Virus record (IMG/VR): IMGVR_UViG_3300045988_162434
Location: 64,001-122,443 of that record
Strand: one strand, 5' to 3'
Origin: a virus
DNA: 58,443 nucleotides
Part shown: positions 17,319-48,272 of the stretch, piece by piece
How the letters are laid out: each line of letters begins with the position of its first letter
How positions within the stretch are numbered: the first letter of the stretch is position 1
The notes under the pieces: generated by a model
The model's input: the letters and a program-made list of their open reading frames with translations, nothing else
Database searches by the model: none
What the model was told of the DNA's origin: nothing
Translations under genes and position numbers: made by a program

Positions 17319-17328
17319 CAGAAACTAT

Positions 17329-17359
17329 GCGGAGAGGACTTGACCTCTCCGCTATTTTT
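17329..17359 (+). terminator. rho-independent terminator GCGGAGAGG-ACTTGA-CCTCTCCGC plus TATTTTT
   Basis: Perfect 9-bp GC stem directly after the TMP stop. Its position is the reason the downstream ORF's ATG at 17327 is rejected as the start. Confidence 0.7.
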
Positions 17360-17431
17360 GGTTATAATAGAATAAGAATGAGATTTGATTTTTCATATTC
17401 TAATAAAGAAGAGAAAAAGGAGGAAAGAGTA

Positions 17432-20400: not shown

Positions 20401-23400
20401 TAAAGAATGTAATTACTCTTGGAATGCAAACAGTAACATCTTTTTAGATAAAAATATGACTGTGCATGAAATATCTGTTTCTGAAGATAATGAGTGTCCT
20501 GTTGCAAAGCCAAATCCACTTTTTCAATCTGGAGACTTTTATAATTATATTAAAGTAAAAGTAGATATTGAGAATAAGGTTCTAAAAGATAAATTAAGCA
20601 AGTCTACTTCTGAAAAAGAAGAATTACAAAAAGCTTTGGATAAGAATAATTTAATTTATAATAATTTAGAATTATTTTTAAAAGCATGTAATCTTTATCA
20701 GATAGAATATTCACTTAAACAAAGTAAGGAAGAACTTCAAAAAAGAAGTGAGTGTATAGATGCATTACAAAATATTATCAGTGCAATAAATAATTTAGAT
20801 AGAGATGTTTCAGCTCAATCTAATATGAGCGAATTAACTCTTTCTAATGGAATTAAGATAGGTAGTTCTAAAAGTGCAGATACTTTTATTTATAATGAAT
20901 TAAATATTATAAATAATATTATTATATCTGTTTTAAATACTAAGACAAGTGTTTATGGTATTGGATATAATAATGGAAAAGATATTGAATCTATATCTTC
21001 TTTATTTGAAGATGTTTTCTCTAGAATTTCAACTTTATATGGTAATGGCATTAGAACTATTATTAGAAAAGATGTTAACATTTTACAAAGCTCTATTGAT
21101 GCTTTTAATACTTTTAATCAAAGTATTAAAAATAAAACAGTTACAACTAATTATAGTGATTTTACTGCTAAATTAAAAAGTATAGTTGAGAATGAAAATT
21201 TGGTTGAATTAGCAAAACAAGAAGAAGAATATCAAAAGTTATTAGATACATTAAGTGGATACTATGTGAATATTACAGAGTATGTAAGCGGAAATGATGT
21301 GGAAAAAAATTATGCTGATATTTGGAATAGCTTTGTTAATTTTAAGCAAAAACTTTATTCATATGGCAGAGAAATTGAGTCTGATGAAATATTAGAGCAA
21401 AGAAATCAATTAAATCAACAGTATGCTTTAAGCTTAAATGAAATTGAATCTAATAAAGAAAATACTATTATTTCTAGTGAACCTATTATATCATATCAAA
21501 ATAGAACATTGTCTGGAAAAAAATATTCAGAAGCTAAGAGTATTGTTCAAAAAAGATATGAGGAGTTGACGGCAGAAGAAAATGATAATTGTAGTAAAGA
21601 AATAGCCAAAATTAAAGCCAATAAAGATTTTACTGATGAAGAAAAAGGTAAAGAGATTGCAGTTATAAGACAACACTATGCTATATTAACAAGAGAAAAA
21701 ACTTTGGAAAAAGATGCTGTATTAAAAACTTTGGCTAATGATGTTGAGAAGACAAAAATAAAAAATATAGATATTATAACCAAGAAATATAATACAGATT
21801 TATTAAAAACTTATGAAAATAGCTATTTGGTTCCATTGGCGTATTTACAAGAAAAGTATAGTACAAAAACGTCAGAATTAAATACAGATATTAAAAATAA
21901 AGATAAAGAAATAGCTGACTTAAATAAAGGTATTGAATCTAGTCAAGAATCAGTTATTATTATTAGACCAATAAATATGAAATGTAATTCATATGAAATT
22001 CCTGGGTTAAATAACTGGGATGGTAAAAAATATTATTTATCTAATAATGGTGAATATATGTTTTGTCCTCAAATTGGTGCTGGTGTAAAAACAAATAATA
22101 ACACCTTTACAGGAATGTTTATGGGTGCTAGAACTTCAGTTAATAGAAGTATGGTTTCTGAAACTGAAAATGACCTTAATTTAAGAAATAAGGATATTGG
22201 TTTATTTGGATACTCACAAGGTGTTCAATCTATCTTTTTAGATGCTAAAACAGGTTCCGCGTTTATGGGAATGCCAGGACAAGGCCAGATTGTAATAAGT
22301 CCAGACCAAGCTTTTGCTTCAATATACTCTGGAAATTATTATAAATATGATTCAAACAGAAAAGGCTATTATAGTAAAAAAGATGGTAGCTTTATTAGTG
22401 AAATTGATTTTAATAATTTAAAGACTCAAGAAGAAAGAGATAACTATTCAAGCGGACAAGGTATGCTTATTAACCTAACTGATGGTGCTATAAAGAGTAG
22501 TTATTGGAATGTTAATTCTGAAGGTAAGAGTACATTTACATCTGGAGTTATTGGTGGATGGGAAATTGGTGCAAATACATTATCTAGTATAGTAAAGAAT
22601 AACACGCAGCTCGTGCTTGATAGTGGTAATTCAGTTGGCTTAACAGATGTTAATGGATCTGAAGACCGCAGTCCTAAAATTTATTCTAGTGACAATACTA
22701 AAAAACCACATGATACTTTAGATAGTATGCAACCCGGATTTTATCTTAGCTCAGATGGTTTAAGCATTGGTAATACATTTAAAGTAAGCACTCAACCTGC
22801 GACGGGATTAAGAACTCAAGGAACAGGTATTCTTGAAGTAGGAAATTTAAGTGGCGCACATTGGACGATCGGACAAAATCTTGAAGGTACAAGTTTTATT
22901 GGTTATGGGGCTTCTTATTTAATTAGTAAGTCTTTTGTTAATACAAACAATGATAATTCAGCTAATGATAGTGAAAGTGTATATTTAGGTACTGATGGTT
23001 TATCTTTTGGTAGAAACTTAGAATTAAAATCAAATGGATCATTAAAAGTAGGTCGTTTTACAAAAAATGGTCTTTTAAGTAATTTCTTGGTATTAGAGGT
23101 TGATGAAGGAGATAGCTCAAATGCTTCTTTAAGATTTAATACTAATAGTATACATGATTTTAAGAATAATAGTCTCTATGTAGGAACTCAAGGAATTAGA
23201 CTTGGAAAGCAGAGTTTAAAAAGTAATAATCGTGGAGTATTTGAAGTTGAAAATGATGGTACTCTATGGGCGACAGCGGGGCATATTGCTAATTGGACTC
23301 TTGATGAATATCAATTATTATCAACAAATACGGTCGTTGTAGATGGTACAACTAGACCGGGATTAGTATTAGACAGTAGAAAAGGCTATGTTGCTTTTAT

Positions 23401-24496
23401 TAAAGAAGGTTTTGATAAAACAACAAAAGGTTTCTATATAGGTAATGAAGGCTTATCTTTAGGTGATTCATTCTGGGTTGATAGAACGGGGCAACTTTCT
23501 GCAACAAAAGGAAACATTGCTAATTGGATTATTGATAAAGATTCTTTATATGTAAAGACTTCTGCAACAGATGGTTCATTAGTTAAATTATTTGACATTC
23601 ACCCTACAACGTCTGGCGGATACATTGCTTATAATACAACAGGCTGGAATACAGGTAGATTATTAGATAATGTTGAAGGATGTTTTTACTTAGGTACAAG
23701 CGGAATTTCGCTTGGAGAAGGTCCTGCCGCACCTTTTAGAGTTAATAATAAAGGTTATTTGTGGTCTACCTCTGGAACTATTGGTGGATGGACCATTAGC
23801 AATACAAGCCTTAAAGGTGGTAATGTTACTCTCAATAGTGATGGTTCTATTCAAGGTTCTGGATGGAATTTTAATACTGCTGGCGTTCTTACTTGTAATG
23901 ATGCGATTATTGGTGGTGTTCATTTTAAAACTGGTTCAGGAGAAGCAAATTGGTCAGGTGGACAGATGACATCTGGTCAGATAGGCGGATGGACTATTAC
24001 TACAAGTAGTATTTATGATACTGCAAGTGGTGGCGGAAATATTAAATTTGACACAAGTGGTGATTTTAATATTTTAACAGATGGTGAATCTGGTATTAAA
24101 GGTACCGGTGGAGATATTTCTATGAAAGGTACTACTAGAGTAACTGCTTCTAGTGGTAGTAATAAAATGGAAATAACTAATACAAGTGGTTCTTTAAGAG
24201 TTGGTAGTTTTGGTTTATCTATAAATGCATCAGAAACTTCTTTGAGTGGTTCTTCAAAATTAAGATTATCTGGTGGAACAGAATTGTATCTTTCTTCTCC
24301 TAAGGCTATATTTAATGCTTCTGGAGAAAATATTATGATTGGTTCGAGTACGTCCTTAAAAAACTATATAGAAAGTGTTGTCAATACTGTTCTAAAAAGT
24401 AAAACTATTGATTTTAAAACTAATACAGTCTATACGGGAGAAGCAGAAGGACATAAACATACATATACTAAAGTTGTTAGTGCTACAATATCATAA
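17432..24496 (+). CDS. giant tail-associated protein (about 2354 aa): N-terminal beta domain, central alpha-helical coiled-coil stalk of several hundred residues, C-terminal beta-helix-like repeats with a recurring GGW(T/E)I / IANW(T/I)(L/I) motif. Fiber, spike or evolved distal-tail protein.
   Basis: TTG start at 17432 with RBS AAAGGAGGAAAG 8 nt upstream, in frame with the track ORF. Repeats such as IGGWEIGANTLSS, AHWTIGQNLEG, IANWTLDEYQLLS, IGGWTISNTSLKG, IGGWTITTSSIYD. Confidence 0.75.
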   Translation: MATDYTKFQVDSTVKENFTKAASNTSLNKGADYISNSIYDAVASVSENAASAVQSDVSYEMEVMEIVDQGTATYRVKYLENDKLQAHASTPSYSVGDHVLVLVPRGDFDNPLVILNSVTPSVTVVGEDKTTAETLKRIEVSQNLFNNYNLIKFASYQDEIIDINDIVPYNLSDLLKGYFDSGYNILKLNMNVKTSIAKEQRISGSYGIKVEIPIRRKNADGILKDDIQEFYLDSKVFNGNPYELTNWSNQTNYLVLNFGDEIVFDKKRSIKVTAFVDGFPQDPAKTDKNVWADIILKDIQLTVCEDIETVEGGYKVVLTAENGPFFANQDVSSIEEKKINLKVFLNGLETSYAKMPIYWFIEDPTVNETSKYYHRSAGVNWRCLNSRTEVLGEAQNDSSFVFNTSAGSVTISNQDVKHKSKIRCYVGTNEGQLWVYGELTISNLYSLIKEVNLYADKENNTYVENVGIVTLTCEVNYPNLYSNVVRDEELNYVWEQIDQQGRIISQDDFYNIVALNDKNITDGIYTTKISFPVSSLTSDMNIFKVYVYANKKQASGSIIAYPIETKQISIRTKEGQDFLVVLDNANINYNYDADGDAPDSDNYDGLSLQKLEIKPVEFSIISAATGEEISKAEYDRVSWVWKVPINSLLKPNLVYFESVNQDNTSAITKDDNYYYIRGNGTNRSLQYKLASRYNAKSAQSLSSLTITFGNTVLYEDVPIRFSKDGENGTNGTKYTAFVTYKIGDTEYRYGDIYIDDNGNEHPVKMRFVAVEDNDGTIDWYIYDLVSNTLKKCYALSGNSYSHIKGDLYRLNIKVYKDGEEINTSASSQTGQASVSWNIFDSGEKQGLGWKENKYYCPFAISDSDSSSCYIIPTNNDKSKLSQWNNENNIPYVIVQANISLSNLKATADQSTDDLNNIYNNDLHIYYDYPIEITRIKKPQTDFASDGSFKSFVPSLEGGFYNVLYTSAGNNPQYDDTENFRCESNLIGVDSKECNYSWNANSNIFLDKNMTVHEISVSEDNECPVAKPNPLFQSGDFYNYIKVKVDIENKVLKDKLSKSTSEKEELQKALDKNNLIYNNLELFLKACNLYQIEYSLKQSKEELQKRSECIDALQNIISAINNLDRDVSAQSNMSELTLSNGIKIGSSKSADTFIYNELNIINNIIISVLNTKTSVYGIGYNNGKDIESISSLFEDVFSRISTLYGNGIRTIIRKDVNILQSSIDAFNTFNQSIKNKTVTTNYSDFTAKLKSIVENENLVELAKQEEEYQKLLDTLSGYYVNITEYVSGNDVEKNYADIWNSFVNFKQKLYSYGREIESDEILEQRNQLNQQYALSLNEIESNKENTIISSEPIISYQNRTLSGKKYSEAKSIVQKRYEELTAEENDNCSKEIAKIKANKDFTDEEKGKEIAVIRQHYAILTREKTLEKDAVLKTLANDVEKTKIKNIDIITKKYNTDLLKTYENSYLVPLAYLQEKYSTKTSELNTDIKNKDKEIADLNKGIESSQESVIIIRPINMKCNSYEIPGLNNWDGKKYYLSNNGEYMFCPQIGAGVKTNNNTFTGMFMGARTSVNRSMVSETENDLNLRNKDIGLFGYSQGVQSIFLDAKTGSAFMGMPGQGQIVISPDQAFASIYSGNYYKYDSNRKGYYSKKDGSFISEIDFNNLKTQEERDNYSSGQGMLINLTDGAIKSSYWNVNSEGKSTFTSGVIGGWEIGANTLSSIVKNNTQLVLDSGNSVGLTDVNGSEDRSPKIYSSDNTKKPHDTLDSMQPGFYLSSDGLSIGNTFKVSTQPATGLRTQGTGILEVGNLSGAHWTIGQNLEGTSFIGYGASYLISKSFVNTNNDNSANDSESVYLGTDGLSFGRNLELKSNGSLKVGRFTKNGLLSNFLVLEVDEGDSSNASLRFNTNSIHDFKNNSLYVGTQGIRLGKQSLKSNNRGVFEVENDGTLWATAGHIANWTLDEYQLLSTNTVVVDGTTRPGLVLDSRKGYVAFIKEGFDKTTKGFYIGNEGLSLGDSFWVDRTGQLSATKGNIANWIIDKDSLYVKTSATDGSLVKLFDIHPTTSGGYIAYNTTGWNTGRLLDNVEGCFYLGTSGISLGEGPAAPFRVNNKGYLWSTSGTIGGWTISNTSLKGGNVTLNSDGSIQGSGWNFNTAGVLTCNDAIIGGVHFKTGSGEANWSGGQMTSGQIGGWTITTSSIYDTASGGGNIKFDTSGDFNILTDGESGIKGTGGDISMKGTTRVTASSGSNKMEITNTSGSLRVGSFGLSINASETSLSGSSKLRLSGGTELYLSSPKAIFNASGENIMIGSSTSLKNYIESVVNTVLKSKTIDFKTNTVYTGEAEGHKHTYTKVVSATIS

Positions 24497-24498
24497 TA

Positions 24499-24527
24499 TT
24501 GACAAAATAAAAAATTTTTGTTATACT
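24499..24527 (+). promoter_or_regulatory. sigma-A promoter TTGACA-17-TATACT
   Basis: Exact -35, 17-nt spacer, 5/6 match at -10. About 28 nt upstream of a small ORF with RBS AAAGGAGA. Confidence 0.6.
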
Positions 24528-24555
24528 TAATTAAAGAGATAAAGGAGACTAACTA

Positions 24556-24732
24556 ATGGATGAACTTAGACAAACTATAGTAACTGCGGTTAACAATAGT
24601 AATCTTCCAATAGATGCAATATATTATGTAATGAAAGACATTTGGAGAGATGTCTATGAGATGCATGAGAATGCGTTGAAAAATGCTTCTACCAAAACAG
24701 AGCCTACAGCTGAGGCTACTGAGGAAGAATAA
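24556..24732 (+). CDS. small hypothetical protein (58 aa), below the ORF-track length cutoff
   Basis: RBS AAAGGAGA then ATG. Translation MDELRQTIVTAVNNSNLPIDAIYYVMKDIWRDVYEMHENALKNASTKTEPTAEATEEE. Sits between the promoter and a hairpin. Confidence 0.45.
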   Translation: MDELRQTIVTAVNNSNLPIDAIYYVMKDIWRDVYEMHENALKNASTKTEPTAEATEEE

Positions 24733-24740
24733 TGATTGAT

Positions 24741-24772
24741 GCGGTCATAGGTTAATAGTAGCCTGTGACCGC
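24741..24772 (+). terminator. 11-bp stem-loop (GCGGTCATAGG ... CCTGTGACCGC, one G-U pair). Weak or partial terminator, or an RNA regulatory hairpin.
   Basis: Inverted repeat seen in sequence. The downstream T-run is poor (ATTTGGTCGTT). Confidence 0.35.
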
Positions 24773-24854
24773 ATTTGGTCGTTATAAGATTATACTCTTT
24801 GGGTAGCTTTGATATATTTTGAGAAATGAATAAACCCAAGGAGGAATAGATAAA

Positions 24855-25343
24855 ATGCTTAACTTATTATCTAATTATTCAGCTACAACTATTGCCATTA
24901 TTATTTTTATGGTGTTAGTTGCTCTCAAAGAGTTAATTGAATTACTTAAATATTTTTATAACATATTAAAGAAATATTTTGGAAAAGAGGAAGAAGAAAA
25001 AAAGAATGATGATAAAATATTAGAACAGTTAAATGAATTAAAAAAAGACTTTGATGAGCATAAAAAAGAACATCAAGAAATAAAAAATGACATACAAGAG
25101 ATAAAAGAGGAATTAGTAGATAACAAAAACAGTATAAAAAGATTAGTGACATCAGACCGGAATGACATAAAAAGCTGGCTTGTAGAAAAACATCATTTTT
25201 TCACAAATCAAGGCTGGATAGATGACTTTTCAATGGATACTGTTAATAGAAGATTTAGTGATTATGTTGATGAAGGCGGCAACTCGTATGCAGAGAGTCT
25301 AGTGAGTGCGATTAGAGATCTCCCTAACCAACCGCCGCAATAG
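24855..25343 (+). CDS. membrane-anchored coiled-coil protein (162 aa): N-terminal TM helix, highly charged K/E coiled coil, C-terminal domain. Candidate BhlA/UviB-like holin-like or superinfection-exclusion protein.
   Basis: RBS AAGGAGGAATAG. TM segment TTIAIIIFMVLVALKELIELL followed by KEEEEKKNDDKILEQLNELKK... Located in the moron unit inside the tail module. Confidence 0.7.
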   Translation: MLNLLSNYSATTIAIIIFMVLVALKELIELLKYFYNILKKYFGKEEEEKKNDDKILEQLNELKKDFDEHKKEHQEIKNDIQEIKEELVDNKNSIKRLVTSDRNDIKSWLVEKHHFFTNQGWIDDFSMDTVNRRFSDYVDEGGNSYAESLVSAIRDLPNQPPQ

Positions 25344-31879: not shown

Positions 31880-31908
31880 GGGCTTTTAAATAAGCCCCAA
31901 TTTATTTT
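31879..31908 (+). terminator. rho-independent terminator GGGGCTT-TTAAAT-AAGCCCC plus T-rich tail
   Basis: 7-bp GC stem overlapping the stop codon, followed by AATTTATTTT. Confidence 0.6.
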
Positions 31909-31928
31909 GAGAAAAAGGAGGAAAAGAG

Positions 31929-33357: not shown

Positions 33358-34662
33358 ATGGGATTATATAAATTTAGTATCGCGGCTGCCGCGTCTCTTA
33401 GTGATATTGAAGCTAAAATCACTAGCGCTAGGGAGCAAGGCGCGAATATTTATCTACACACCATTGTAGATATAGGTAACTTAAATTTGTCAATAAATGA
33501 TAAAAATGTTACAATAAACTATGATTTAATTGGAACAAAACAGAATAGTTTATTCCATTGGTATATTTGTGATACAGTTGGATATGAGACTATTATTATT
33601 TTATATAATTCAGGAACTGAATCAGATAGTACGTTTGGTTTAGCTAATTATAATCGAATCTATTTTAATGTGAAGAATCAACTGGTGTCAAACCCAAAGA
33701 TCTCAGCGACGCTAGCCGCGCAATTTAATGTTCTTAGAGGACGATTTGATTCATATGAATCAGATGGTGGCAATGATGATGTAATTATGTTAACCAAATG
33801 TGTCTATAATGATGGATCTAATATTGAAACAGGAGAAGCTATTGTTACAGATAATCTTTATGTTTCAACTAATTTAAGGTCAACTTCATTTAAGACTATT
33901 GTTAAAGATGAAGATGGCAAGCAATTTATAAATGTTGGTGGAATTTTTTATTTGCCATATAGTGAAAAAATTATGTATCCTAGTTTTAGTGAAAAACAAT
34001 GGATATTACCGCTAGGGAGTATTGATTATGAGTGGCATCCTGCTACAACAGCTGTTAAGTCTAAATGGTATGATACAAACAATAATAAAAATTTTACTTT
34101 TAATAGCTGTTCTTATGAAACTAATATAGAGAATTTTTATAAAAGTATATTAAAATATACTACTCATACTACTCATTCTGGTGCAATATACTCGGAGAAT
34201 ATAGATTTTTTTAATTCACCATCTAGCTCTTTAATTTTTTATATTATAATAGCATCAAGAGAAAAATGCAATGAGAATATCCCTTATCTTCAATTATGTT
34301 TTGCTGAGAGTAACGGCGAACAAGGGGTGTATTTTTATGGAGATGATACAATTCAAGTTAAAGTAATTAAATCTGGTAGCGGCAGCACGGAATATTTTGC
34401 AACGAGACAAGACCCTTTAAAATATAATGTTTATGCAGTTAAAGTTAGTGAGTTTGTTGCCAACTCTTCATCCTATGCAGCAAATTTTTCTGTATATATA
34501 AATGGAAAGTTTATAAGACTTTTTAATAATGCATTGTGTGGTAATTGGTTAAGATTAGGTATCTCTAATTTTAAATATGTTGGTATAGTAGAACATGATC
34601 AAACATCTGAGGAGATTATTAAAAATTCTCAATTACTTATGAAAAAGTTTGATATATATTAA
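33358..34662 (+). CDS. receptor-binding/tail fiber-like protein, paralog 3 (434 aa)
   Basis: RBS CAGGAGGAG. Same conserved N-terminal and middle module, different C-terminal domain, conserved acidic C-terminal tail. Confidence 0.75.
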   Translation: MGLYKFSIAAAASLSDIEAKITSAREQGANIYLHTIVDIGNLNLSINDKNVTINYDLIGTKQNSLFHWYICDTVGYETIIILYNSGTESDSTFGLANYNRIYFNVKNQLVSNPKISATLAAQFNVLRGRFDSYESDGGNDDVIMLTKCVYNDGSNIETGEAIVTDNLYVSTNLRSTSFKTIVKDEDGKQFINVGGIFYLPYSEKIMYPSFSEKQWILPLGSIDYEWHPATTAVKSKWYDTNNNKNFTFNSCSYETNIENFYKSILKYTTHTTHSGAIYSENIDFFNSPSSSLIFYIIIASREKCNENIPYLQLCFAESNGEQGVYFYGDDTIQVKVIKSGSGSTEYFATRQDPLKYNVYAVKVSEFVANSSSYAANFSVYINGKFIRLFNNALCGNWLRLGISNFKYVGIVEHDQTSEEIIKNSQLLMKKFDIY

Positions 34663-34674: not shown

Positions 34675-36252
34675 ATGGCTTTATTTCAATTTAGTACATC
34701 AATTAGTACAACAGTTTCAGAATTAGCTGATAAATTAACCTCTTGGCAGGATAGCGGAGCTAGTATATCAGAAATTGCAATTTCTAATATCAATGATATA
34801 AGTTTTTTAATAAATGATAAATATTGTAATGTTAAATATAATATATCTTTTTCTCAAAATGCAAATTATTTTTGGTTTTTATGTGATAGTGTTGGATATG
34901 AAACTTTAATTGTTTTATGTGATTCCCCTATTGTTAATGAAAATGGGTATAAAGGAAGTCTTGGAAATGCGTTGTATAATGCGATTTATTTTTTACATAA
35001 TGGTAGATTGGTAAGAAATCCTCAAATTGATGAACCTATATGTAGTCAATTTAATATTCCTAATGGTTCTGTTGTTGAAAGTTCTGATGATAGAATTATA
35101 TTTACTAGATGTACTTTTAATAATGGTGTTAATATAGAAGTAGGTTCAAATGAGATAACTGACAAATTATATATATCAACAAATTTAATTTCTGCTGGTT
35201 TTTTAACTGAAATTACAGGATCGGGGCAAAAATTTATAAATATTGGTGGGATATTCTATTTACCTTATAATGATGTTGTTTTAAGTCTAAGCAAGTATAA
35301 AAAAAGAAGTGTTTTAAAAAATGCTGAAATAGAATTATGGGCAGGTTGTTATGAAGATAATGAAAAAATATATGATAAAAAAAATAATGTTTTTTATAAA
35401 AACACTTATAATAATATAAAAATAGTTCCAGACGGGAATATGGAAATGGGATATATTGATTTAGATGCTGGTGATAGGTTGCTGTTGACAAGCAAAGAGC
35501 CTTTTTATAATAAAACAATTTATTTAGTTGCTTATGATACTGGAATAGAATCTTTTGATCAACAAAGTCAGGAGTCAGAAGTCGGTTATATGAAAAAAAT
35601 AATCACAAGTGGAATTACCTTTAGAGAGGTTTCGACAGATAAGATATCTTTTTATCCTGAAATGTTTAGTTTAAATAAAATAAGTGCATGGGGATCGTCG
35701 CCGTCTTATAAGAAGGAATTAGGATATGCTTTAATGAATTATAAAAACCAAAATTGGAATAAAACTGACCCAAAACCAGTACCAATATATTTTAATTATT
35801 CATTATTATCTAAAAAAGATAATTATTTTCTCTTACACTATCCAAAAGCTCATGAAGCAGTTTGGGCATTCAAAGATATAAAAGTTAAAAAAAATATATA
35901 CGTATTAAAGTCTCCTGTTGTTAAAAATGGTGAATATTCAGCATTTATAAATAATTTAAAAATAGAAAAAAGCGCAAGTTATTTTATAGAATCTTATAAG
36001 CCTGATTCTTATAATAAAGCAGACTATTTCTTAATAATAGGAGGTAGACAAGGTGCGGACAGTAGTGTCATTAGCCCAGTAGCTTTTCCAACTGAAGAAA
36101 ACACTTTTTATCATAATCAAATTAGAAATACATCAGAATTAAAAATAGATTATTTTGGAATAATAGAAGAATCACAGTCTGATGAAGAAATACAAAAAAA
36201 TATTCAAAAGTTAGCAAAAATCTTTAAAGTAGATTTAGAAGAGCCCTCATAA
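34675..36252 (+). CDS. receptor-binding/tail fiber-like protein, paralog 4 (525 aa)
   Basis: RBS AAGGAGG. Same module. The longest and most divergent C-terminal domain. Confidence 0.75.
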   Translation: MALFQFSTSISTTVSELADKLTSWQDSGASISEIAISNINDISFLINDKYCNVKYNISFSQNANYFWFLCDSVGYETLIVLCDSPIVNENGYKGSLGNALYNAIYFLHNGRLVRNPQIDEPICSQFNIPNGSVVESSDDRIIFTRCTFNNGVNIEVGSNEITDKLYISTNLISAGFLTEITGSGQKFINIGGIFYLPYNDVVLSLSKYKKRSVLKNAEIELWAGCYEDNEKIYDKKNNVFYKNTYNNIKIVPDGNMEMGYIDLDAGDRLLLTSKEPFYNKTIYLVAYDTGIESFDQQSQESEVGYMKKIITSGITFREVSTDKISFYPEMFSLNKISAWGSSPSYKKELGYALMNYKNQNWNKTDPKPVPIYFNYSLLSKKDNYFLLHYPKAHEAVWAFKDIKVKKNIYVLKSPVVKNGEYSAFINNLKIEKSASYFIESYKPDSYNKADYFLIIGGRQGADSSVISPVAFPTEENTFYHNQIRNTSELKIDYFGIIEESQSDEEIQKNIQKLAKIFKVDLEEPS

Positions 36253-36266
36253 GAGGGCTCTTTTTT
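36241..36266 (+). terminator. rho-independent terminator GAGCCCTC-ATAA-GAGGGCTC plus T6
   Basis: Perfect 8-bp stem including the stop codon, followed by TTTTTT. Confidence 0.8.
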
Positions 36267-36437
36267 ATTGTAACTAATTATTTTTTAATCTTACGTATTT
36301 TTTTCCTTTATCTTCATAAAATAGCATCTCCTGTTAAATTCTAAATATTTCTCTTTGTCTCTGCTATCTCTTTAACAAAACTAGCTAATAGACATGCAGC
36401 CTTTTGGATATATCTATGATAGAAAGGAGGAAACTAA

Positions 36438-36836
36438 ATGTTTCAACCAAATGCATATTATTATCCAAATCAGCCGCAACAGTCATATGCACCTAGACAG
36501 GTTCCATATGAGATGCCGCAACAGAATCTCTTGAAAGGAAGATTTGTTTCATCAATAGATGAAGTTAGAGCAGCTCAAGTTGATTTTGATGGAAGTATTT
36601 TTGTTTTTCCAGATATGGCAAATAAAAAAATTTATACCAAACAAATTGACTTAAATGGTAATGTTAAATTAGAAGAATATGATTGGGTACCTATTGAGAA
36701 GACCTCGGCAATCGGTGATTTTGTTACCAAACAGGAATTTGAGGAAACTATGGCTAAAGTTAAAGAAGCTATTTCTCAAGCTACACAGCCACAAGTAACC
36801 CAGCAACCGCAAAGTAAAGAAGGATTTAATTTTTAA
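36438..36836 (+). CDS. hypothetical protein with Q/P/Y-rich low-complexity N-terminus (132 aa)
   Basis: RBS GAAAGGAGGAAAC. N-terminus MFQPNAYYYPNQPQQSYAPRQVPYEMPQQ. Confidence 0.7.
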   Translation: MFQPNAYYYPNQPQQSYAPRQVPYEMPQQNLLKGRFVSSIDEVRAAQVDFDGSIFVFPDMANKKIYTKQIDLNGNVKLEEYDWVPIEKTSAIGDFVTKQEFEETMAKVKEAISQATQPQVTQQPQSKEGFNF

Positions 36837-36857
36837 ATAAGAAAGGAAGAAGAGAGA

Positions 36858-37109
36858 ATGCAAGGACAAGGTTTTAATCCAATGCAAATTATTCAAGCAA
36901 TTCAGAGTGGAGCAAATCCGCAACAGATTACTATGAATATCCTCCAAGAAAAAATGGGACAGACCCCTATGGGACAAAATTTAATGCAATTAGCACAAAT
37001 GGGAAACTCATCTCAGTTAATGCAGATTGCTAAGAATTTATCTAATCAAAAGGGTGTCAATTTTGATCAAGAATTTACCGCCTTTAAAAACAAAATGGGC
37101 GTTAAATAA
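36858..37109 (+). CDS. hypothetical Q/M-rich small protein (83 aa)
   Basis: RBS GAAAGGAAGAAGAG. Repetitive MQ..Q composition. Confidence 0.6.
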   Translation: MQGQGFNPMQIIQAIQSGANPQQITMNILQEKMGQTPMGQNLMQLAQMGNSSQLMQIAKNLSNQKGVNFDQEFTAFKNKMGVK

Positions 37110-37133
37110 TATATATTAAAGGAGGACATTCAT

Positions 37134-37925
37134 ATGTTCAATGGAAACACTAGTGGCTATTCATTAGCCGATATCGCAGCCGCAACAGGCGGAAACGATA
37201 GAAACAATGGATGGGGAGGAGATTGTTGGTGGATCGTTCTTTTCATCTTAATTCTTGCCGGCGGAAATAACTGGGGTGATGGATTATTTGGTGGTAAAGA
37301 CGCAACAGCTTCTGGTATTACTGATGGCTATATCCTTACAACAGATTTCGCTAACATCGAAAGAAAAATTGATAGCGTAAACAATGGTATTTGTGATGGA
37401 TTCTATGCTATGAACACAGGTATGCTTAATGGGTTTAATTCATTAGGTAATGCTATTCAGGGTGCTCAGGCTGATGTAACTGCTGCAGTAAATGCAGATA
37501 CAATAGCAAATATGCAGAATACAAATGCTATTACTAGCCAACTTACTGGTATTGGTACACAGATTGCTCAATGCTGCTGCGATCAGAGATACGAGAGCGC
37601 AACTCAGTTTGCTAACTTAAACTATAATATTGCAGATCAGAGCTGTCAAACAAGACAAGCTATTGCTGATTCTTCAAGAAATATTATAGCTAATCAAGAC
37701 GCTAATACAAGAAGTATCTTAGACTTCTTAACACAAGACAAGATTGCTACTCTTACAGCTGAGAATCAGTCACTTAAATTTGCTGCTTCACAGGCTGCAC
37801 AGAACACATATCTTGTAAATGCACTTAGCCCAGCTCCAGTTCCATCATATCAAGTTCCAAATCCTTATACAGGAATGTATGGATATAGAGCATGCTGCAA
37901 TACTGGATGCGGATGTACTGTATAG
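37134..37925 (+). CDS. membrane-anchored protein (263 aa) with a Gly/Trp-rich 'tiny-TM' YjcZ-like N-terminal segment and a Cys-cluster C-terminus
   Basis: RBS AAAGGAGGA. GWGGDCWWIVLFILILAGGNNWGDGLFGG. C-terminal QCCCDQRY ... RACCNTGCGCTV. Confidence 0.7.
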   Translation: MFNGNTSGYSLADIAAATGGNDRNNGWGGDCWWIVLFILILAGGNNWGDGLFGGKDATASGITDGYILTTDFANIERKIDSVNNGICDGFYAMNTGMLNGFNSLGNAIQGAQADVTAAVNADTIANMQNTNAITSQLTGIGTQIAQCCCDQRYESATQFANLNYNIADQSCQTRQAIADSSRNIIANQDANTRSILDFLTQDKIATLTAENQSLKFAASQAAQNTYLVNALSPAPVPSYQVPNPYTGMYGYRACCNTGCGCTV

Positions 37926-37938
37926 GAGGTAAGTAACT

Positions 37939-38361
37939 ATGGAAATTACAGCTAATGCTGCTCAATCTGTTGCAGCAAGTCAAAATGTGGTATTCACGGA
38001 TACTGCTGTTCCTGGTAACTGCTCCATTATTCACAGAGAAGGTTCTGGTTTAACTAAATTGCGCGGTCTCACAACTACGCAGTGTAGAGCTAGATTCAAA
38101 GCTACATTCGGTGGTAACATAGCAGTTCCAACAGGTGGCACTGCAGGAGCAATTTCTGTTGCTTTAACTGTAGATGGCGAGCCTGTGGGTACAACAACTA
38201 TGACAGTAACTCCAGCCGCAGTAAGTGAGTATTTTAATGTAGGAGCAAGTATTTATCTTGATGTGCCTGCGGGGTGTTGCTCTACTATTGGAGTAACAAA
38301 CATTTCTTCTCAGGCTATTTCTGTAATAAATGCTAATCTTATAGTAGAAAGAGTTGCTTAA
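37939..38361 (+). CDS. BclA C-terminal-domain-like (C1q/TNF-like jelly-roll) protein, 140 aa, without a collagen region
   Basis: RBS AGGAGGTAAG. LTVDGEPVGTTTM and the C-terminal ...NANLIVERVA resemble the Bacillus BclA C-terminal domain (...IQVNGVPVPGT... ...SIIIEKVA). Confidence 0.6.
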   Translation: MEITANAAQSVAASQNVVFTDTAVPGNCSIIHREGSGLTKLRGLTTTQCRARFKATFGGNIAVPTGGTAGAISVALTVDGEPVGTTTMTVTPAAVSEYFNVGASIYLDVPAGCCSTIGVTNISSQAISVINANLIVERVA

Positions 38362-38375
38362 GGAGGGTTATGAAA

Positions 38376-38924
38376 ATGGATAAATACAAGAGTATGAAAG
38401 ATACCTTAGTTGCTCAAGTTCAAACTCAATTAGGCAACTTAGAGAATGTTGATGCAAAAGAGCTTGGAGAGGTTGTAGATATGATCAAAGACCTTGAAGA
38501 AGCAATGTACTATTGTTCTATAACAAAAGCAATGGATGAAAGTGAGCGTCAAAAGTCTAGACAGCATTACTATTCAGAACCATATTATGGTTATGAGGGA
38601 AGAATCTCTCCAGATTATAGAGATATGGACAGAGATAAGTGGAATAGAATGTATTATGGCGGACAGCCGGTGGATGGAAACCATATGTCTAGAGGAATGG
38701 AGTCTATGGGACGTGACAGCCGCGAAGGTAGAAGTCCTATGAGCAGACGTTCTTATATGGAATCTAAAGAAATGCATCAAGATAAAACATATCAAATGAA
38801 AGAATTAGAAAACTATATGAAAGAATTATCTTCTGATATTACAGAGATGATTGCAGATGCTTCTCCTGAAGAAAAACAATTACTTAAACAAAAAATGACT
38901 ACTCTTATGAGTAAGATTGTTTAA
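38376..38924 (+). CDS. hypothetical R/Y/M/S-rich low-complexity protein (about 182 aa; alternative start at 38370)
   Basis: GGAGGG lies only 2 nt before ATG 38370 but 8 nt before ATG 38376. Composition is disordered and Tyr/Arg-rich. Confidence 0.6.
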   Translation: MDKYKSMKDTLVAQVQTQLGNLENVDAKELGEVVDMIKDLEEAMYYCSITKAMDESERQKSRQHYYSEPYYGYEGRISPDYRDMDRDKWNRMYYGGQPVDGNHMSRGMESMGRDSREGRSPMSRRSYMESKEMHQDKTYQMKELENYMKELSSDITEMIADASPEEKQLLKQKMTTLMSKIV

Positions 38925-39248
38925 TTGTTTACAATAAATGGAGAAACATGGTATATAGTATTTGTTCCTTCTAATTCTTTTGTTCTTTATAGAAGTGATG
39001 GTTCTCTTAGTATCGCCATGTGTGATGACGATACTAAAACCATATATATTAGTAATCAAATAAAAGGTAATTTTCTAAGAAAAGTCCTTTGCCATGAGAT
39101 AACTCATGCGGCAATGTTCTCTTATAATGTTAACCTAACTGTAGACCAAGAAGAGCTATTAGCTGACCTTGTAGCTACTTATGGCTACGAAATTATTTAC
39201 ATTACAAATGAGATATTTAGAAAATTAAAATGGGAGTCTTATTATTAA
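38925..39248 (+). CDS. small HExxH zinc-metallopeptidase-like protein (ImmA/IrrE- or SprT-like motif CHEITHAAMF), 107 aa, TTG start
   Basis: HEITH motif preceded by hydrophobic residues, as in ImmA/IrrE-type peptidases. The TTG start overlaps the upstream stop. No adjacent HTH partner. Confidence 0.45.
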   Translation: MFTINGETWYIVFVPSNSFVLYRSDGSLSIAMCDDDTKTIYISNQIKGNFLRKVLCHEITHAAMFSYNVNLTVDQEELLADLVATYGYEIIYITNEIFRKLKWESYY

Positions 39249-39266
39249 GACTCCCATATTTTTATT
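39230..39266. terminator. bidirectional rho-independent terminator at the convergence of the late (+) and early (-) modules (12-bp stem ATGGGAGTCTTA / TAAGACTCCCAT, T-runs on both sides)
   Basis: Perfect inverted repeat overlapping the stop of the + strand gene, 4 nt from the ruvC stop. Flanked by AAAATTAAA and ATTTTTATT. Confidence 0.7.
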
Positions 39267-39269: not shown

Positions 39270-39761
39270 TCAAAAAGCAGATTTTTTCTTATCACCCAAA
39301 CAATAGGCATGACCAATTCCTATTGCATCAGCTTCATCATCATTAACTGTTTTATTATAATTTTCTTTTACAAAATCAATATCTAGTTGTTTTAAGACAT
39401 TTCGCGTAATACCTCTACCTGTGTGGATCCCGCACTTAGCTCGCCATTCTGAACTTGTAAAAAATTCCATTTTTAATTTATTATGTCTATGCAGCATAAT
39501 AGCAATACTACCTTGTGCGTACGTTAGTGCTTTATAAACAGTCGTATTATGTCCACAAAAAGCTGGTAATGGATCTTCTACAATAACTTTATTTATTGAG
39601 TCTATATCTACTTTTTCTTCTAATTCTTTTGTTATTTTTTCTATTCTCTCTAAGACAGACGCGGACGTTGCTGTGATACAACCAGACTGGATTAGTTCTC
39701 CCTCATCGAAAACCGCGTATCCTGTAGACTTAGTAGAGATATCTAATGCTAAAACTTTCAT
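39270..39761 (-). CDS. ruvC: RuvC-family Holliday junction resolvase
   Basis: N-terminus MKVLALDISTKSTGYAVF and acidic residues typical of phage/lactococcal RuvC resolvases. RBS AGGAGG. Confidence 0.8.
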   Translation of the reverse strand: MKVLALDISTKSTGYAVFDEGELIQSGCITATSASVLERIEKITKELEEKVDIDSINKVIVEDPLPAFCGHNTTVYKALTYAQGSIAIMLHRHNKLKMEFFTSSEWRAKCGIHTGRGITRNVLKQLDIDFVKENYNKTVNDDEADAIGIGHAYCLGDKKKSAF

Positions 39762-39786: not shown

Positions 39787-39815
39787 ATTATATCACAAAA
39801 TTTTTATCCTGTCAA
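39787..39815 (-). promoter_or_regulatory. consensus sigma-A promoter TTGACA-17-TGaTATAAT for ruvC
   Basis: The minus strand reads TTGACAGGATAAAAATTTTGTGATATAAT, followed by AGGAGG and the ruvC ATG. Confidence 0.7.
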
Positions 39816-44222: not shown

Positions 44223-47200
44223 TTATTCATCCTCCTCTTCAGAAGTGTTGCTACTCCAACGTTCGTGTGTTATAGCTATTTCATTACCTTTTACTTCTGT
44301 TATTTTATAAAGTTGATGACCTATTGTGTTTTTATATGTTTTTCCAACGAATTGGTCATCTCTTCTAAAACCTGTTATCATAAGCATAGTTCCACGCTTA
44401 AACCAAGATTTTTCTTTTACGTGTTTTTTACCATCTGGACCAATATCAGAAATCTGCTTTTTAAACATTGCATAATATTCTCTTGTAAACTTTACATCAA
44501 CTACTCCAGAAGTAGTAAGTAATGTAATCATACTTTTTGAATCATTTTTATCAATAACCGTACCAGCAATTCTGCTTAATTTATAAATAGGAATTTGTCG
44601 TTGACCTCTCTTAAAGAAATAATCAACAGGTTCTGACTCTAATTCATTAAAATCTCTAATTCCATACTTATTAAAATCAATATTTGCTAATTCATGTTCT
44701 CTATGATAAAAACATAATGCATCCATTTCCCAATGAGAAACTGTTCCAAAAGCATATTTATCCCAAGCATCTTTAAAAATCTTTTGATTATAAGCTTTTA
44801 ATATACTTTCTGAATTATCTTTAATCCAATTTCTAGCATTATCCATTTGCTTTTTATATATTTTATCCCAATCAGTTTGTAAAATACAGACTACTCCATT
44901 GATGATTTGTAATTTATCACTACAATCAGAATAAAATTTATCAAAGAATGAAATTGCTTCATTATTGAAAGTATAATATCTACCAACCTTAAAATTTTTA
45001 AGAAACTTATTAAAGTTAAAAACTCTAATTTCAAGTTCAAGTTCTTTAGGTACCAAGCCCGCCTCAATTAAACCATTAAAATTCTGTAAAGTAATTCTCT
45101 TTTTAAGACCACATTCATTATAAAGATAATAACCCATAATCATCTTTCGATTACCTAAACCATTCTTTTCAATTTCATCAAAAGCACCAGCTTTAATTAA
45201 GTTAATCATCGCGGTTTTAGTTAATTTACATCTTAACATAAAATCTTTTAAACTACTATATGGTCTACCAGATTTAATTTTATCAATAACATCATCTCCA
45301 ATATTACTAATACCTTTTAATCCAAAAAGAATTTGATTATTTTCAATATCTGGCATAAATGTAAAATCAGATCTGTTTATATCTACTAATGAAACTTTAA
45401 TTCCTTTTGTTGTAATATCTCCAATCGCAGTGGCTATTTTACCATAATTAGTAGATTTTTTAATCTTCTTTTTTTCTTGGTGTCCGGGCAAATCTATATA
45501 ATCATATGTTTCAAAATCTTCTGGTTCATATATATTAACAATCTCTTCTTCATGTTCTTCTTCAAGAGATCCGCTGTTCACTCTAAGACATGCAGTGTCC
45601 CAAAAAATTGGATTCCAATGTGTTCCAATATATAAAGTCTGATATCCAATAAAACTGTATGCAATGGCGTGTATAACTGAGAAAGAATAACCCATCTGAG
45701 GTCCGATTCCGCATTCCCATACGTAAACGCCAAGAGCTTTAGATTTTGCCTGTTGGAGAACTTTTTCTCTCAAAGCCGGAATCTTAGACATCTGCTTTTT
45801 ACCTACAATTTTTCTTGCGGCATTCGCTTCCGCGAGGCTAAATCCACAAATATCTTTATCCATTAACATTGTCATCAACTGCTCTTGTGAAGGCGGAACT
45901 CCATATGATTTTAAGAAATGAGGTTCAAGAGCTTTCATTTCATCCTCTGTTAAACCATATCTTCTCATTTCTTCATACCAAAGATTGATATTATTTTTAA
46001 AACGAATATACTTATCCATTGGTGTTTCCGCACCTTGTTCTGATGTCATCAATCTCATCAACCCATTGGCATCTGCCATCTCAAGTATAGATTTTGGATG
46101 AATCTTCTTTGCTGCTTGAGATCCTACAACTGAATCAAACTGAAAAGTATCAAGAACAGTTCCCGCTTGAAGAGCATTCCAACATTTTTTATCATCGAGT
46201 GGAAGATTCTCTGGTTGAAACATTTCGTTGTATATTTCTCTTAAAGTTTTGTTCTTATCAATTTCTCCATACTGCTGAAGTAATTTAATTGCTTCAACAA
46301 GTTTGTCTTGAACTGAAGTAACCAAGAAATCATATTTTGTCATGCCTGCTGATTCTGCATCATGTAAATCATATTGAGTAATGACATCTCCACTTGGAGT
46401 TCTCATAAAGCAACCAAATTCAAATGGATCTTCATCAAAAAGAATTACTCCTGATGCATGAGAACCTCGTTGTTTAATAAGACCTTCAATAGCAAACATA
46501 ATATCCATTAAACCTGGATATGTTTCTACTTCATTAACAAAAGTTGAAACTGTTTTTCTACCTTTTTCTGTATTTCCATATACCACATCTTTTAATGACC
46601 ATAAAAACCCTCTTTCCTGTGGAACAAGAGAAGATAAATATTGAGAAGTATCAATATCAATTCCATCTGGACACTCTTCACTTCTATATCCTCTACAAGC
46701 TGTTTGAATCGCAGATTTTGTAGTTTCCGTTCCAAAAGTCGCAATAAGAGTACATCCACAATTTGCTTTAACAATAGGAGGAATACTAGATAAGAATTTT
46801 TTACCTCTCTCTTTCTTTATCTCATTTAAGATGCGCGGACGCTTTGAAGGACACAAATCTAGATCTATATCTCCTAATTCTGTACGTTCTTTATTGAGAT
46901 ATCTCCAGAATGGAAGTTCCCATTTTAATGGATCAAGCTGTGTGATACCAAGCAAATAGTGATTTAATCCTGAACAAGAAGAACCTCTTCCCGCGCCAAC
47001 CATACTTCCGCATTCCCAAAATAAATCAACATAATGTTGAAGTGTTACTGGATATGCAAACATATTAGTTTCAAGCTTTTTTCCTATTGTTTTTTTAATA
47101 TCTGCTTCATATTCAAGTCTATCAAGATAATCAAATCCTTCGTTAATTAAATCATAAGTCGTCCATTCTTTTTTATTACATAAATTTGTTAAACATTCAT

Positions 47201-48272
47201 TCACCCAATATCTTTCAATCTTATCATCTGAATTAAACATAGATGCAAGAATTGGTTGGTTTTCTGCAATAATTCTTTCCTCTTGTCCGCTATGAAGTAA
47301 ATCAAGTTTAGGATAATCTTTTACCTCAACTTTTGGAATTGTCTGTTTATGAAACAAGCTATAATTTTCAATTTTATCCCAAATTTCCATTGAATTATAA
47401 CAAGCATTATCATAAATTTCTTTATAATTATCAAAAGATTTACTTAAATGCTCTAAAATTTCTTCTTCACTTTGTAAATAAGAATATTCATAGAAAGCAT
47501 CTACCTCACGTTCACCATCTTTTGAATTAAGATAAGCTTTATGAACATATCTATCTTCTTTTTTAAGATAATGCGCATCACAACCAATTACATATTTTAT
47601 TTTAAATAAATCTGCTATTGCAATAAGACCCTTATTTGCAATAATTTGTTCATTAGAACATCCCGGAGCAAATTCAATATAGAAGTCTTTTCCAAAAATT
47701 GATTGCATATCTTGAATAAAATTAACCGCAGCTGCATATGCTTCCTGTCGTCCAGCTTCGTTACCTGTCTGCTCAGCCGCCTTAAATTTCAAAAGATTAT
47801 TAGAAAGTTCTCCACCAATACATGCTGTTGTTGCGATAACATGTCCTGGGTTTCTTCCAATAACCTCTTTTAATTCAGACTTTAAAGTTGGAACTCTTTC
47901 ACCTCTATCACTATATTCGTTTAACCAAGCAAGTGAAGATAATTCTCTTAATTGCTTATGCCCAATCGCATCTTTTGCTATAAGAATAAAGTGATAATAT
48001 CTTTGTCCTTTTATTCTTTCATCAACAAGATAAATTTCATTACCCAATGCAATTTTAAAATCTGGATTTTCTTCTTTTATTTTATCTTGATATTTTTGTA
48101 CACGAACATGACCACTAAGACATTCATGGTCTGTAATGGCTATTCCCTTTAATCCTAATTCGATTGCTCTATCAATCAATAATTCCGGTTTATTAATTGA
48201 ATCAACCAATCTAAGATTTGAATATTCTGTATGCGAATGTACTTCCATTCTTAAATTCATTTTTTTCGACAT
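44223..48272 (-). CDS. dnaE: DNA polymerase III alpha subunit (DnaE-type, N-terminal PHP domain), 1349 aa
   Basis: PHP motif (MEVHSHTEYS ... ITDHECL), length and domain order of PolIII alpha. Consensus promoter upstream. Confidence 0.8.
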   Translation of the reverse strand: MSKKMNLRMEVHSHTEYSNLRLVDSINKPELLIDRAIELGLKGIAITDHECLSGHVRVQKYQDKIKEENPDFKIALGNEIYLVDERIKGQRYYHFILIAKDAIGHKQLRELSSLAWLNEYSDRGERVPTLKSELKEVIGRNPGHVIATTACIGGELSNNLLKFKAAEQTGNEAGRQEAYAAAVNFIQDMQSIFGKDFYIEFAPGCSNEQIIANKGLIAIADLFKIKYVIGCDAHYLKKEDRYVHKAYLNSKDGEREVDAFYEYSYLQSEEEILEHLSKSFDNYKEIYDNACYNSMEIWDKIENYSLFHKQTIPKVEVKDYPKLDLLHSGQEERIIAENQPILASMFNSDDKIERYWVNECLTNLCNKKEWTTYDLINEGFDYLDRLEYEADIKKTIGKKLETNMFAYPVTLQHYVDLFWECGSMVGAGRGSSCSGLNHYLLGITQLDPLKWELPFWRYLNKERTELGDIDLDLCPSKRPRILNEIKKERGKKFLSSIPPIVKANCGCTLIATFGTETTKSAIQTACRGYRSEECPDGIDIDTSQYLSSLVPQERGFLWSLKDVVYGNTEKGRKTVSTFVNEVETYPGLMDIMFAIEGLIKQRGSHASGVILFDEDPFEFGCFMRTPSGDVITQYDLHDAESAGMTKYDFLVTSVQDKLVEAIKLLQQYGEIDKNKTLREIYNEMFQPENLPLDDKKCWNALQAGTVLDTFQFDSVVGSQAAKKIHPKSILEMADANGLMRLMTSEQGAETPMDKYIRFKNNINLWYEEMRRYGLTEDEMKALEPHFLKSYGVPPSQEQLMTMLMDKDICGFSLAEANAARKIVGKKQMSKIPALREKVLQQAKSKALGVYVWECGIGPQMGYSFSVIHAIAYSFIGYQTLYIGTHWNPIFWDTACLRVNSGSLEEEHEEEIVNIYEPEDFETYDYIDLPGHQEKKKIKKSTNYGKIATAIGDITTKGIKVSLVDINRSDFTFMPDIENNQILFGLKGISNIGDDVIDKIKSGRPYSSLKDFMLRCKLTKTAMINLIKAGAFDEIEKNGLGNRKMIMGYYLYNECGLKKRITLQNFNGLIEAGLVPKELELEIRVFNFNKFLKNFKVGRYYTFNNEAISFFDKFYSDCSDKLQIINGVVCILQTDWDKIYKKQMDNARNWIKDNSESILKAYNQKIFKDAWDKYAFGTVSHWEMDALCFYHREHELANIDFNKYGIRDFNELESEPVDYFFKRGQRQIPIYKLSRIAGTVIDKNDSKSMITLLTTSGVVDVKFTREYYAMFKKQISDIGPDGKKHVKEKSWFKRGTMLMITGFRRDDQFVGKTYKNTIGHQLYKITEVKGNEIAITHERWSSNTSEEEDE

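Follow-up and report, generated by a model that had tools for sequence, protein, structure and literature searches.

A conserved six-gene cassette encoding a putative stalk and a predicted jelly-roll protein accompanies lysis genes in gut viruses

What is encoded by the block of low-complexity genes that closes the late operon of the IMG/VR virus record IMGVR_UViG_3300045988_162434, in the place where lysis genes are expected? We analyzed 58,443 nucleotides of this record (its positions 64,001 to 122,443; this whole stretch is hereafter called the window), in which plus-strand genes extend as far as 39248 and are met by a convergent minus-strand module from 39270 onward. A first-pass annotation, made from the sequence alone, had described five genes in this block and proposed that they form a phage-borne spore-surface cassette. 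The block is best explained, in our analysis, as a copy of a six-gene cassette that spreads horizontally among gut viruses in company with their lysis genes. As to its function, we tentatively favor a late, membrane-anchored complex of a stalk and a jelly-roll protein, which would act at the envelope around lysis.

Conservation and spread of the cassette

The block is far from a chance feature, since every one of its protein families is found again, in unchanged order, in dozens of independent loci. We examined 88 loci by tblastn, taken from records of phages, from metagenome contigs and from genomes, one for each species (individual loci are designated by L and a number below). The genes for the 263-amino-acid (aa) and 140-aa proteins stand together in 83 of them, and about 20 loci of large phages keep the full order 132-83-263-140-184-107 (lengths in aa), followed by a convergent RuvC gene. 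Clustering of the neighboring genes likewise gave fixed positions: the family of gene 1 (55 members) lies mostly two genes upstream of the 263-aa gene, the small M/Q-rich protein (16 and 29 members in two homologous families) always immediately upstream of it, and the family of gene 5 (47 members) directly downstream of the 140-aa gene, while the last position is held by an HExxH family (21 members) or by another family of about 105 aa (14 members). In the window, the five plus-strand open reading frames (ORFs) begin and end exactly where they had been annotated, and the low-complexity compositions attributed to their products agree with the computed residue contents (for example, Q 12% and P 8% in the 132-aa protein, M 10% and Y 8% in the 184-aa protein). 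The count of five genes at the end of the operon was one short, as a sixth co-directional ORF (38925-39248) precedes the terminator.

Gene 3 (37134..37925, plus strand) encodes the 263-aa core stalk protein, and its sole match in Pfam and PHROG is phrog_16490; membership in a holin family was not found in either. The phrog_16490 family comprises 2,419 clusters at 50% identity, all of them standalone proteins of about 130-330 aa without fusions, and the 263-aa protein has at least about 8,000 database matches. The family alignment shows a conserved N-terminal peptide (MFNxNxGYSLADIAAATG) and a conserved tail (PxPxPAYxVPNPY...CGC); the protein has a hydrophobic peak at residues 26-44, with a Gly-flanked, ILFW-rich segment at about 31-44, and ten cysteines, among which C87, CCC147-149 and C171 are invariant. 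The resemblance of its N-terminus to YjcZ-type sporulation proteins, suggested earlier, turned out to be compositional only (a Gly-flanked hydrophobic stretch), with no NCBIfam hit at E<=1. The AlphaFold2 monomer model contains a single helix at residues 75-231 (about 155 residues) at low confidence (pLDDT 58), and this poor model was therefore kept out of the fold search. The heptads of the helix place Ile at a positions and Asn or Gln at d positions, from which we infer a possible trimeric coiled coil about 23 nm long. A match to the class I viral fusion protein HA2 was rejected as not significant (E 0.12).

Gene 4 (37939..38361, plus strand; phrog_20016) encodes the 140-aa core head or anchor. 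Its alignment-based AlphaFold2 model is confident (pLDDT 87.4, pTM 0.83) and bears out the guess of a standalone jelly roll like that of the BclA C-terminal domain (CTD), C1q and TNF: the predicted ten-strand fold is superposable on the BclA CTD or C1q. The nearest structures are F-BclA, BclA and ExsFA, which are exosporium and spore-appendage proteins, at 10-18% identity. Neither GXX repeats nor an exosporium-targeting motif is present in the sequence or the family alignment, in line with the earlier remark that the protein has no collagen repeats or N-terminal anchor. Against Pfam at E<=1, only a weak Big_3 match and no BclA_C or C1q model was obtained, and the family profile found no relevant hit in the PDB. 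The family has an invariant CC113-114 and at least 7,976 homologues, the best of which are mostly 72-89% identical and carry no annotation.

The other four genes surround this pair on the plus strand. Gene 1 (36438..36836, 132 aa, phrog_21718) encodes a protein whose P/Q/Y-rich N-terminus is disordered and is followed by a small beta-rich domain and a C-terminal helix; its homologue in Clostridium perfringens phages is CPD1_36, and sequence and profile searches found no relative in the PDB. Gene 2 (36858..37109, 83 aa) encodes a Met/Gln-rich helical protein (Q 19%, M 11%, N 11%) without a hydrophobic segment. It did not match a PHROG directly and is homologous to the M/Q-rich phrog_22984 protein of about 75 aa in small phages (hhalign probability 84%, E 7e-6). 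We considered whether the 83-aa protein is fused to the stalk N-terminus in the Bacteroides and archaeal homologues, with which it has a '(Q/K)KG(I/V)D' motif in common, and rejected this as not significant (hhalign E 0.03-0.4). Gene 5 (38370..38924, 184 aa) is related to phrog_28802 and has helical N- and C-terminal parts around a variable, disordered middle rich in Arg, Tyr, Ser, Gly and Asp; again, no PDB relative was found. Gene 6 (38925..39248, 107 aa), which lies outside the coordinates of the first-pass annotation, encodes a minimal HExxH metallopeptidase-like protein with the motif HEITH. It matches phrog_1233 (2e-14) and, below the Pfam gathering thresholds, DUF6782 (19.2 vs 27) and SprT-like (17.4 vs 25.6), with a weak M78 match besides; it is kept after gene 5 in 26 loci by tblastn, and in Bacteroides phage C3_41T2LP the corresponding position is occupied by a PolyVal metallopeptidase. 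None of the six proteins reached a family in Pfam, NCBIfam or PADLOC (the latter at E<=1), and the PHROGs matched by five of the six families have no assigned function. Moreover, no amidase, lysozyme, CHAP or holin family was matched, which upholds the statement that no protein of the block resembles a holin or an endolysin.

Carriers include Butyrivibrio phage Ceridwen, which has the pair of genes 3 and 4, lemur and human gut phages, and metagenome-assembled genomes and isolates of Clostridia and Bacilli, and six C. perfringens phages have genes like those for the 132-, 83- and 263-aa proteins. The stalk family reaches further: it is found in no fewer than 15 crAss-like phages, which belong to several families, in Bacteroides uniformis phage C3_41T2LP and in viruses of Methanomassiliicoccales. 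The homologues in crAss-like, Bacteroides and archaeal viruses keep the plan of anchor, CCC and coiled coil, and all except the archaeal ones keep the PAY...CGC tail. In Bacteroidota phages, the stalk gene is followed by a gene for another small beta-rich protein, in which homology to the 140-aa protein was not detected; for the small beta-proteins encoded after the stalk in crAss, Bacteroides and C. perfringens phages, homology to it was tested and rejected (hhalign probability below 1%, even with a 71-sequence profile). All genome matches come from digestive-tract samples, and GenBank labels the crAss homologues 'spike protein/glycoprotein' or 'viral fiber'. In crAss-like cr52_1 and archaeal virus vir215, the stalk gene is closely preceded by genes for a tail protein and for the reverse transcriptase of a diversity-generating retroelement (DGR) (L089:1-1664; L095:815-3949), and this tail protein of cr52_1 is annotated as similar to the major tropism determinant. 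We did not find a description of the cassette in the literature searched.

Both orientations of the cassette relative to the flanking RuvC and structural genes occur (the window vs L005-8 and L093). The cassettes of small phages begin with an extra protein of about 127 aa, phrog_3754 (L020:2242-2631 and 26 other loci), which is absent from the window. Its motifs, a 'GDC(T/V)VRA' cysteine and a 'GHVVAV..YDTWDSG' histidine, are reminiscent of a papain- or CHAP-like peptidase; Pfam gave nothing for this protein. Between the stalk and head genes, some loci hold a C5 methylase, HNH-type endonucleases, a radical-SAM-like protein or unknown proteins, which give no functional clue. HNH, GIY-YIG and I-HmuI-like homing endonucleases and a C5 DNA methylase are repeatedly inserted in or beside the cassette in unrelated phages (L091:4143-4766; L002:7395-8258; L089:5781-6359 and 7436-8110; L090:2883-3503; L041:4819-5934), and these insertions may help to explain its horizontal spread.

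Lysis neighborhood and timing of expression

The genes around the cassette were surveyed in 47 loci of small temperate phages, with up to three upstream ORFs each (141 ORFs). Endolysin and holin families dominate: PHROG endolysins (phrog_2649 in seven cases, 1493 in five, 1224 in five, 435 in four, and others) and holins (199, 10091, 297 and 962) were found, together with the Pfam families PG_binding_1 (five), Amidase_3 (three), Phage_holin_4_1 (three), Phage_holin_1 (two) and Peptidase_M15_3 (two), as well as ELLD and M23. An XhlA-family 'hemolysin' gene (phrog_937) is among the upstream neighbors in two loci, and an integrase lies downstream of the cassette in the small temperate phages. In 14 loci of large phages, a phrog_13712 holin is at most a few genes from the cassette, and a holin-like gene with multiple transmembrane segments adjoins it in L005-8. 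In crAss-like cr116_1 and cr4_1, the stalk homologue is surrounded by structural genes and located 1-2 kb downstream of genes annotated as holin and endolysin, which suggests that the linkage to lysis genes is more than an effect of the end of an operon.

The first-pass annotation had placed the block in the position of lysis genes and the lysis module of the phage elsewhere. The first of these statements is supported, with a holin directly beside the cassette in relatives. Window positions 24497-25343 hold the widest gap between genes of the late region (358 nt) and, after it, the gene for a 162-aa protein with an N-terminal transmembrane helix and a coiled coil, which has PHROG hits of unknown function only and weak Pfam hits. 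As the plus-strand ORFs scanned include no recognizable holin or endolysin, this protein is a candidate holin-like protein or lysis regulator.

Terminators had been reported on both sides of the block, and both were recovered: an intrinsic-terminator-like hairpin with a 12-bp stem and a T-run (36237..36264, plus strand), which ends the tail-fiber-like gene 34675-36252, and a bidirectional terminator hairpin (39230..39257) common to the cassette and the convergent RuvC-like gene of the module that begins at 39270. In 33 of 63 related loci, too, a terminator-like hairpin precedes the cassette by at most 250 nt. Hairpin terminators are frequent within the late operon of the window, and thus the upstream terminator alone is no proof of a separate transcription unit. 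Sigma-70-type promoters are not enriched upstream of the cassette (none of the 63 loci reaches 10 of 12 consensus positions, and the scores are not above those of shuffles), nor were they found where the cassette must have its own promoter. With the leaders of the other late genes in the window, the cassette leader has only the ribosome-binding site in common. Directly before the ribosome-binding site of gene 1 lies the conserved 5'-leader motif ATATATCTATGATAG (36408..36422, plus strand), which occurs once in the window against 0.05 expected, and TATATA..TGAAAG-like strings are found upstream of the first cassette gene in L009, L053, L065 and L017; the motif, which close relatives keep, could be a non-canonical promoter or leader element.

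Other transcription-related features were seen nearby. A perfect sigma-70 promoter (TTGACA, a 17-nt spacer, TATAAT and an upstream TG) precedes the RuvC-like gene 39270-39761 on the minus strand (39787-39815), and nothing comparable is present upstream of the cassette. A sigma-70 region-4 protein is encoded among the upstream ORFs (up to three) in about four small-phage loci, and the gene just upstream of the stalk in crAss-like phages is annotated 'RNA polymerase sigma factor/ubiquitin-like'; these sigma-like genes possibly encode a dedicated transcription factor.

Recoded stop codons in the relatives bear on the timing of expression. The window itself uses the standard code, and many relatives read TAG as Gln or TGA as Trp. 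Recoding was seen in the close relatives L005-L008 (e.g. L005:9290-9349), L011-L015, L018, L021, L024, L026, L027, L029, L046, L050 and L065. In L005, an in-frame TGA stands at the invariant Trp32 of the 263-aa family; 13 other loci have in-frame TAG, for the most part where the family has Gln. The cassette genes of TAG-recoded relatives contain 0.3-3.4 in-frame TAG per 100 codons, compared with 0.1-0.26 in dUTPase, NrdD and two neighboring ORFs; RuvC is also rich in in-frame TAG in these relatives. In recoded phages, recoded stops mark structural and lysis genes and have been proposed to delay translation (bioRxiv 10.1101/2021.08.26.457843). Because the cassette genes are TAG-rich and the nucleotide-metabolism genes TAG-poor, we conclude that the cassette is probably expressed late.

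The window (G+C about 31%) belongs, as judged from its sequence, to a distant SPbeta-like phage of a low-GC gut Firmicute. Its 1349-aa DNA polymerase (44223-48272, minus strand) shows 39-40% identity, along 98% of its length, to YorL of SPbeta-family Bacillus phages and to the protein of Enterococcus VRE9 phages, which supports the SPbeta-type assignment made earlier. PolIII-alpha, NrdD, dUTPase and RuvC genes adjoin the cassette in relatives, some of them on contigs of 127-131 kb; in this size and in their TGA recoding they are like the 'Agate' clade described by Borges et al. (bioRxiv 10.1101/2021.08.26.457843), to which we tentatively assign them. Elsewhere in the late region, two giant ORFs, 8709-17318 and 17327-24496, encode 2869 aa and 2389 aa; the former is the tape-measure protein (PhageMin_Tail, residues 183-401), and no family match was found for the latter. 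The adjacent ORFs 33358-34662 (434 aa) and 34675-36252 (525 aa) are clearly alike in their N-terminal halves and differ at their C-termini, which gives them the look of paralogous tail-fiber or receptor-binding proteins; they match nothing in Pfam or PHROG. Strong hairpins with T-runs stand between late genes at 1670-1747, 6499-6565, 8624-8708 and 31880-31928, with 20-40 nt to the next ribosome-binding site, which suggests control of the late operon by read-through or antitermination.

A putative role at the envelope and its rivals

We tentatively prefer an action of the stalk and jelly-roll complex at the envelope around lysis. The 263-aa protein would use its hydrophobic segment to enter the cytoplasmic membrane of the host and would form a trimeric coiled-coil stalk of about 23 nm, knotted by cysteines or metal. 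The Met/Gln-rich 83-aa protein, as a partner or chaperone, might handle or gate the hydrophobic segment of gene 3; Met-rich binders of hydrophobic peptides, such as the M domain of SRP54 and SGTA, provide an analogy. The jelly-roll trimer would dock on the stalk. Since the partners have no signal peptide by eye, the assembly would be built in the cytoplasm, late in infection, and the complex may then act on the envelope at the moment of holin triggering, in an accessory capacity that regulates or carries out lysis and the release of progeny. The spread over viruses of Firmicutes, Bacteroidota and archaea fits a target as generic as the lipid membrane.

Several observations weigh against this proposal. 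No component matches a holin, spanin, endolysin or lysis-regulator family. No recognizable holin or endolysin was found beside the cassette among the plus-strand ORFs of the window that were scanned, and the phrog_13712 holin of the relatives has no homologue anywhere in the window. The hydrophobic segment of the 263-aa protein has a Kyte-Doolittle 19-residue mean of 1.47, below the usual 1.6 and borderline for a transmembrane helix; this short segment has no flanking positive charges, and its membrane insertion and topology are thus putative only. An export signal is not visible in the partners, four or five in number, which could reach an outward-facing stalk only after lysis. The combination of a C1q-like trimer with a coiled-coil stalk and Pro/Cys-rich ends is more suggestive of a fiber than of a lysis regulator. 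Proximity to lysis genes is in part a matter of lying at the end of the late operon, which is where cargo collects. In addition, the cassette lies between head genes in Dulem virus 35 and adjoins recombination genes in Bacteroides phage C3_41T2LP.

A bolder version of the same idea, which we regard as unlikely, is a novel device for envelope breaching or egress, common to the tailed viruses of Firmicutes, Bacteroidota (including crAss-like phages) and gut methanogens and deployed with the holin to complete or time lysis. Such a device would combine a fusion-protein-like, Cys-knotted trimeric stalk and its Gly-rich hydrophobic peptide with a restraining Met/Gln-rich chaperone and interchangeable caps made of small beta-proteins; in Firmicutes phages, the caps would be C1q/TNF-like.

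An accessory virion fiber is the leading rival, and we consider it rather unlikely too. The 263-aa protein would then be the shaft and the jelly-roll trimer its head or a BxpB/ExsFA-like socket, with the other proteins as chaperones or adaptors; the fiber would be assembled in the cytoplasm, cross-linked through its cysteines after release, and used for adhesion (e.g. to gut glycans) or for membrane penetration like the P22/Sf6 needle. The partners without a signal peptide (by eye) agree with such an assembly route, and Ile at a, Asn or Gln at d and Cys clusters in the stalk are as in trimeric fibers. Many standalone phage proteins of 130-145 aa in BFVD have the fold of the 140-aa protein. The cassette follows tail-fiber-like genes in the window and tail proteins in the archaeal viruses vir215 and vir335, and a DGR reverse transcriptase stands beside a tail protein in cr52_1 and vir215; in Dulem virus 35, the cassette lies within head genes. 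The digestive-tract origin of all genome matches and the 'spike protein' and 'viral fiber' labels of the crAss homologues also favor a fiber. However, the same conserved cassette (45-76% identity of the 140-aa protein) is found in genomes of siphovirus, myovirus and podovirus type and in archaeal viruses, which have no common docking site, and such conservation across very different hosts is atypical of receptor-binding heads. Moreover, a strongly hydrophobic, ILFW-rich segment is unusual for a soluble virion fiber, and the cassette of small phages follows the endolysin, often behind a terminator, outside the structural cluster.

It is improbable, in our estimate, that the block is prophage cargo that helps the lysogen through superinfection exclusion, defense or lysogenic conversion, with a membrane-anchored effector, a sensing trimer and activating peptidases. 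The site between endolysin and integrase, occupied in many temperate phages, is a classic cargo position and an insertion hotspot for methylase, HNH and radical-SAM-like genes, and peptidase-like genes stand at one or both ends of the cassette (phrog_3754, by motif only, and the HExxH protein). This explanation is countered by the failure of all six proteins to hit PADLOC at E<=1, by the lack of sigma-70-type promoter enrichment upstream of the cassette in the 63 loci and by disordered proteins and a jelly roll that are unlike known defense systems. Phages without an integrase in the regions inspected, including crAss-like ones, also carry the cassette, and the in-frame recoded stops would make it untranslatable in an uninfected lysogen that uses the standard code.

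We give hardly any credence to a spore-coat or exosporium cassette made in the mother cell and deposited on the host spore, which F-BclA, BclA and ExsFA as nearest structures of the 140-aa protein, a Cys/Tyr/Gln-rich composition recalling coat proteins, an SPbeta-like phage and many Clostridia among the carriers had made attractive: it is untenable as a general function, because the 263-140 pair is present in phage Ceridwen of the non-sporulating Butyrivibrio fibrisolvens and the stalk family, built in the same way, in Bacteroidota, crAss and archaeal viruses, the hosts of which (Bacteroidota and archaea) do not sporulate; moreover, there is no collagen repeat or targeting N-terminus, no BclA_C, YjcZ or sporulation family was matched, and the neighborhood consists of lysis genes and not of sporulation genes. 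The probability that remains goes to something else.

Relation to known systems and significance

The cassette resembles several known systems in part. Compared with the BclA CTD, the F-BclA CTD and ExsFA/BxpB of Bacillus, it has no collagen repeat or targeting N-terminus, and the partner stalk is an alpha-helical coiled coil instead of collagen; it differs from these exosporium proteins further in being phage-borne, beside lysis genes and present in viruses of non-sporulating hosts as well. PBSX XhlA (a membrane-anchored coiled coil), XepA/YomS (beta-sandwich oligomers) and SPbeta blyA-bhlA-bhlB occupy a post-tail position with holin and endolysin. Like XhlA and XepA, the cassette would pair a membrane-anchored helical protein with a soluble beta-rich oligomer that has no classical enzyme domain; the role may be comparable, which does not extend to ancestry.

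The i-spanin Rz and the T4 holin T are bitopic proteins with an N-terminal transmembrane domain, a large extracytoplasmic domain and functional cysteines. The 263-aa protein may be likened to them in its N-terminal hydrophobic segment, long helical region, conserved cysteines and adjacency to lysis genes, and its Pro-rich C-terminus recalls the o-spanin Rz1. However, the hosts are for the most part monoderm Firmicutes, with assignments to Clostridia or Bacilli, and in some cases archaea, in all of which spanins are without function, and the cassette has neither a lipoprotein partner (signal judged by eye) nor a match to a spanin family. The tail needle of P22/Sf6 is a trimeric coiled coil with, in Sf6, a TNF-like knob, whereas stalk and knob are separate genes in the cassette, which is not limited to P22-like podoviruses. 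The cassette belongs to none of these systems. We rate it as accessory proteins of phage lysis cassettes built from unprecedented parts, and there is a real chance that it is categorically new.

Taken together, these results correct an attractive inference, as a BclA fold by itself is no proof of a spore function. They define a cassette with a conserved CCC, CC and PAYxVPNPY tail and three cultured carriers (Butyrivibrio phage Ceridwen, the C. perfringens CPD1-group phages and B. uniformis phage C3_41T2LP), which makes the question of its function directly testable. Lysis and release are, to our knowledge, poorly understood in crAss-like phages, and the stalk gene adjoins their lysis genes. 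Although the core pair has no assigned function, few accessory gene pairs of gut viromes are as widespread or as well conserved, and the stalk family spans the boundary between the viruses of Firmicutes, Bacteroidota and Archaea.

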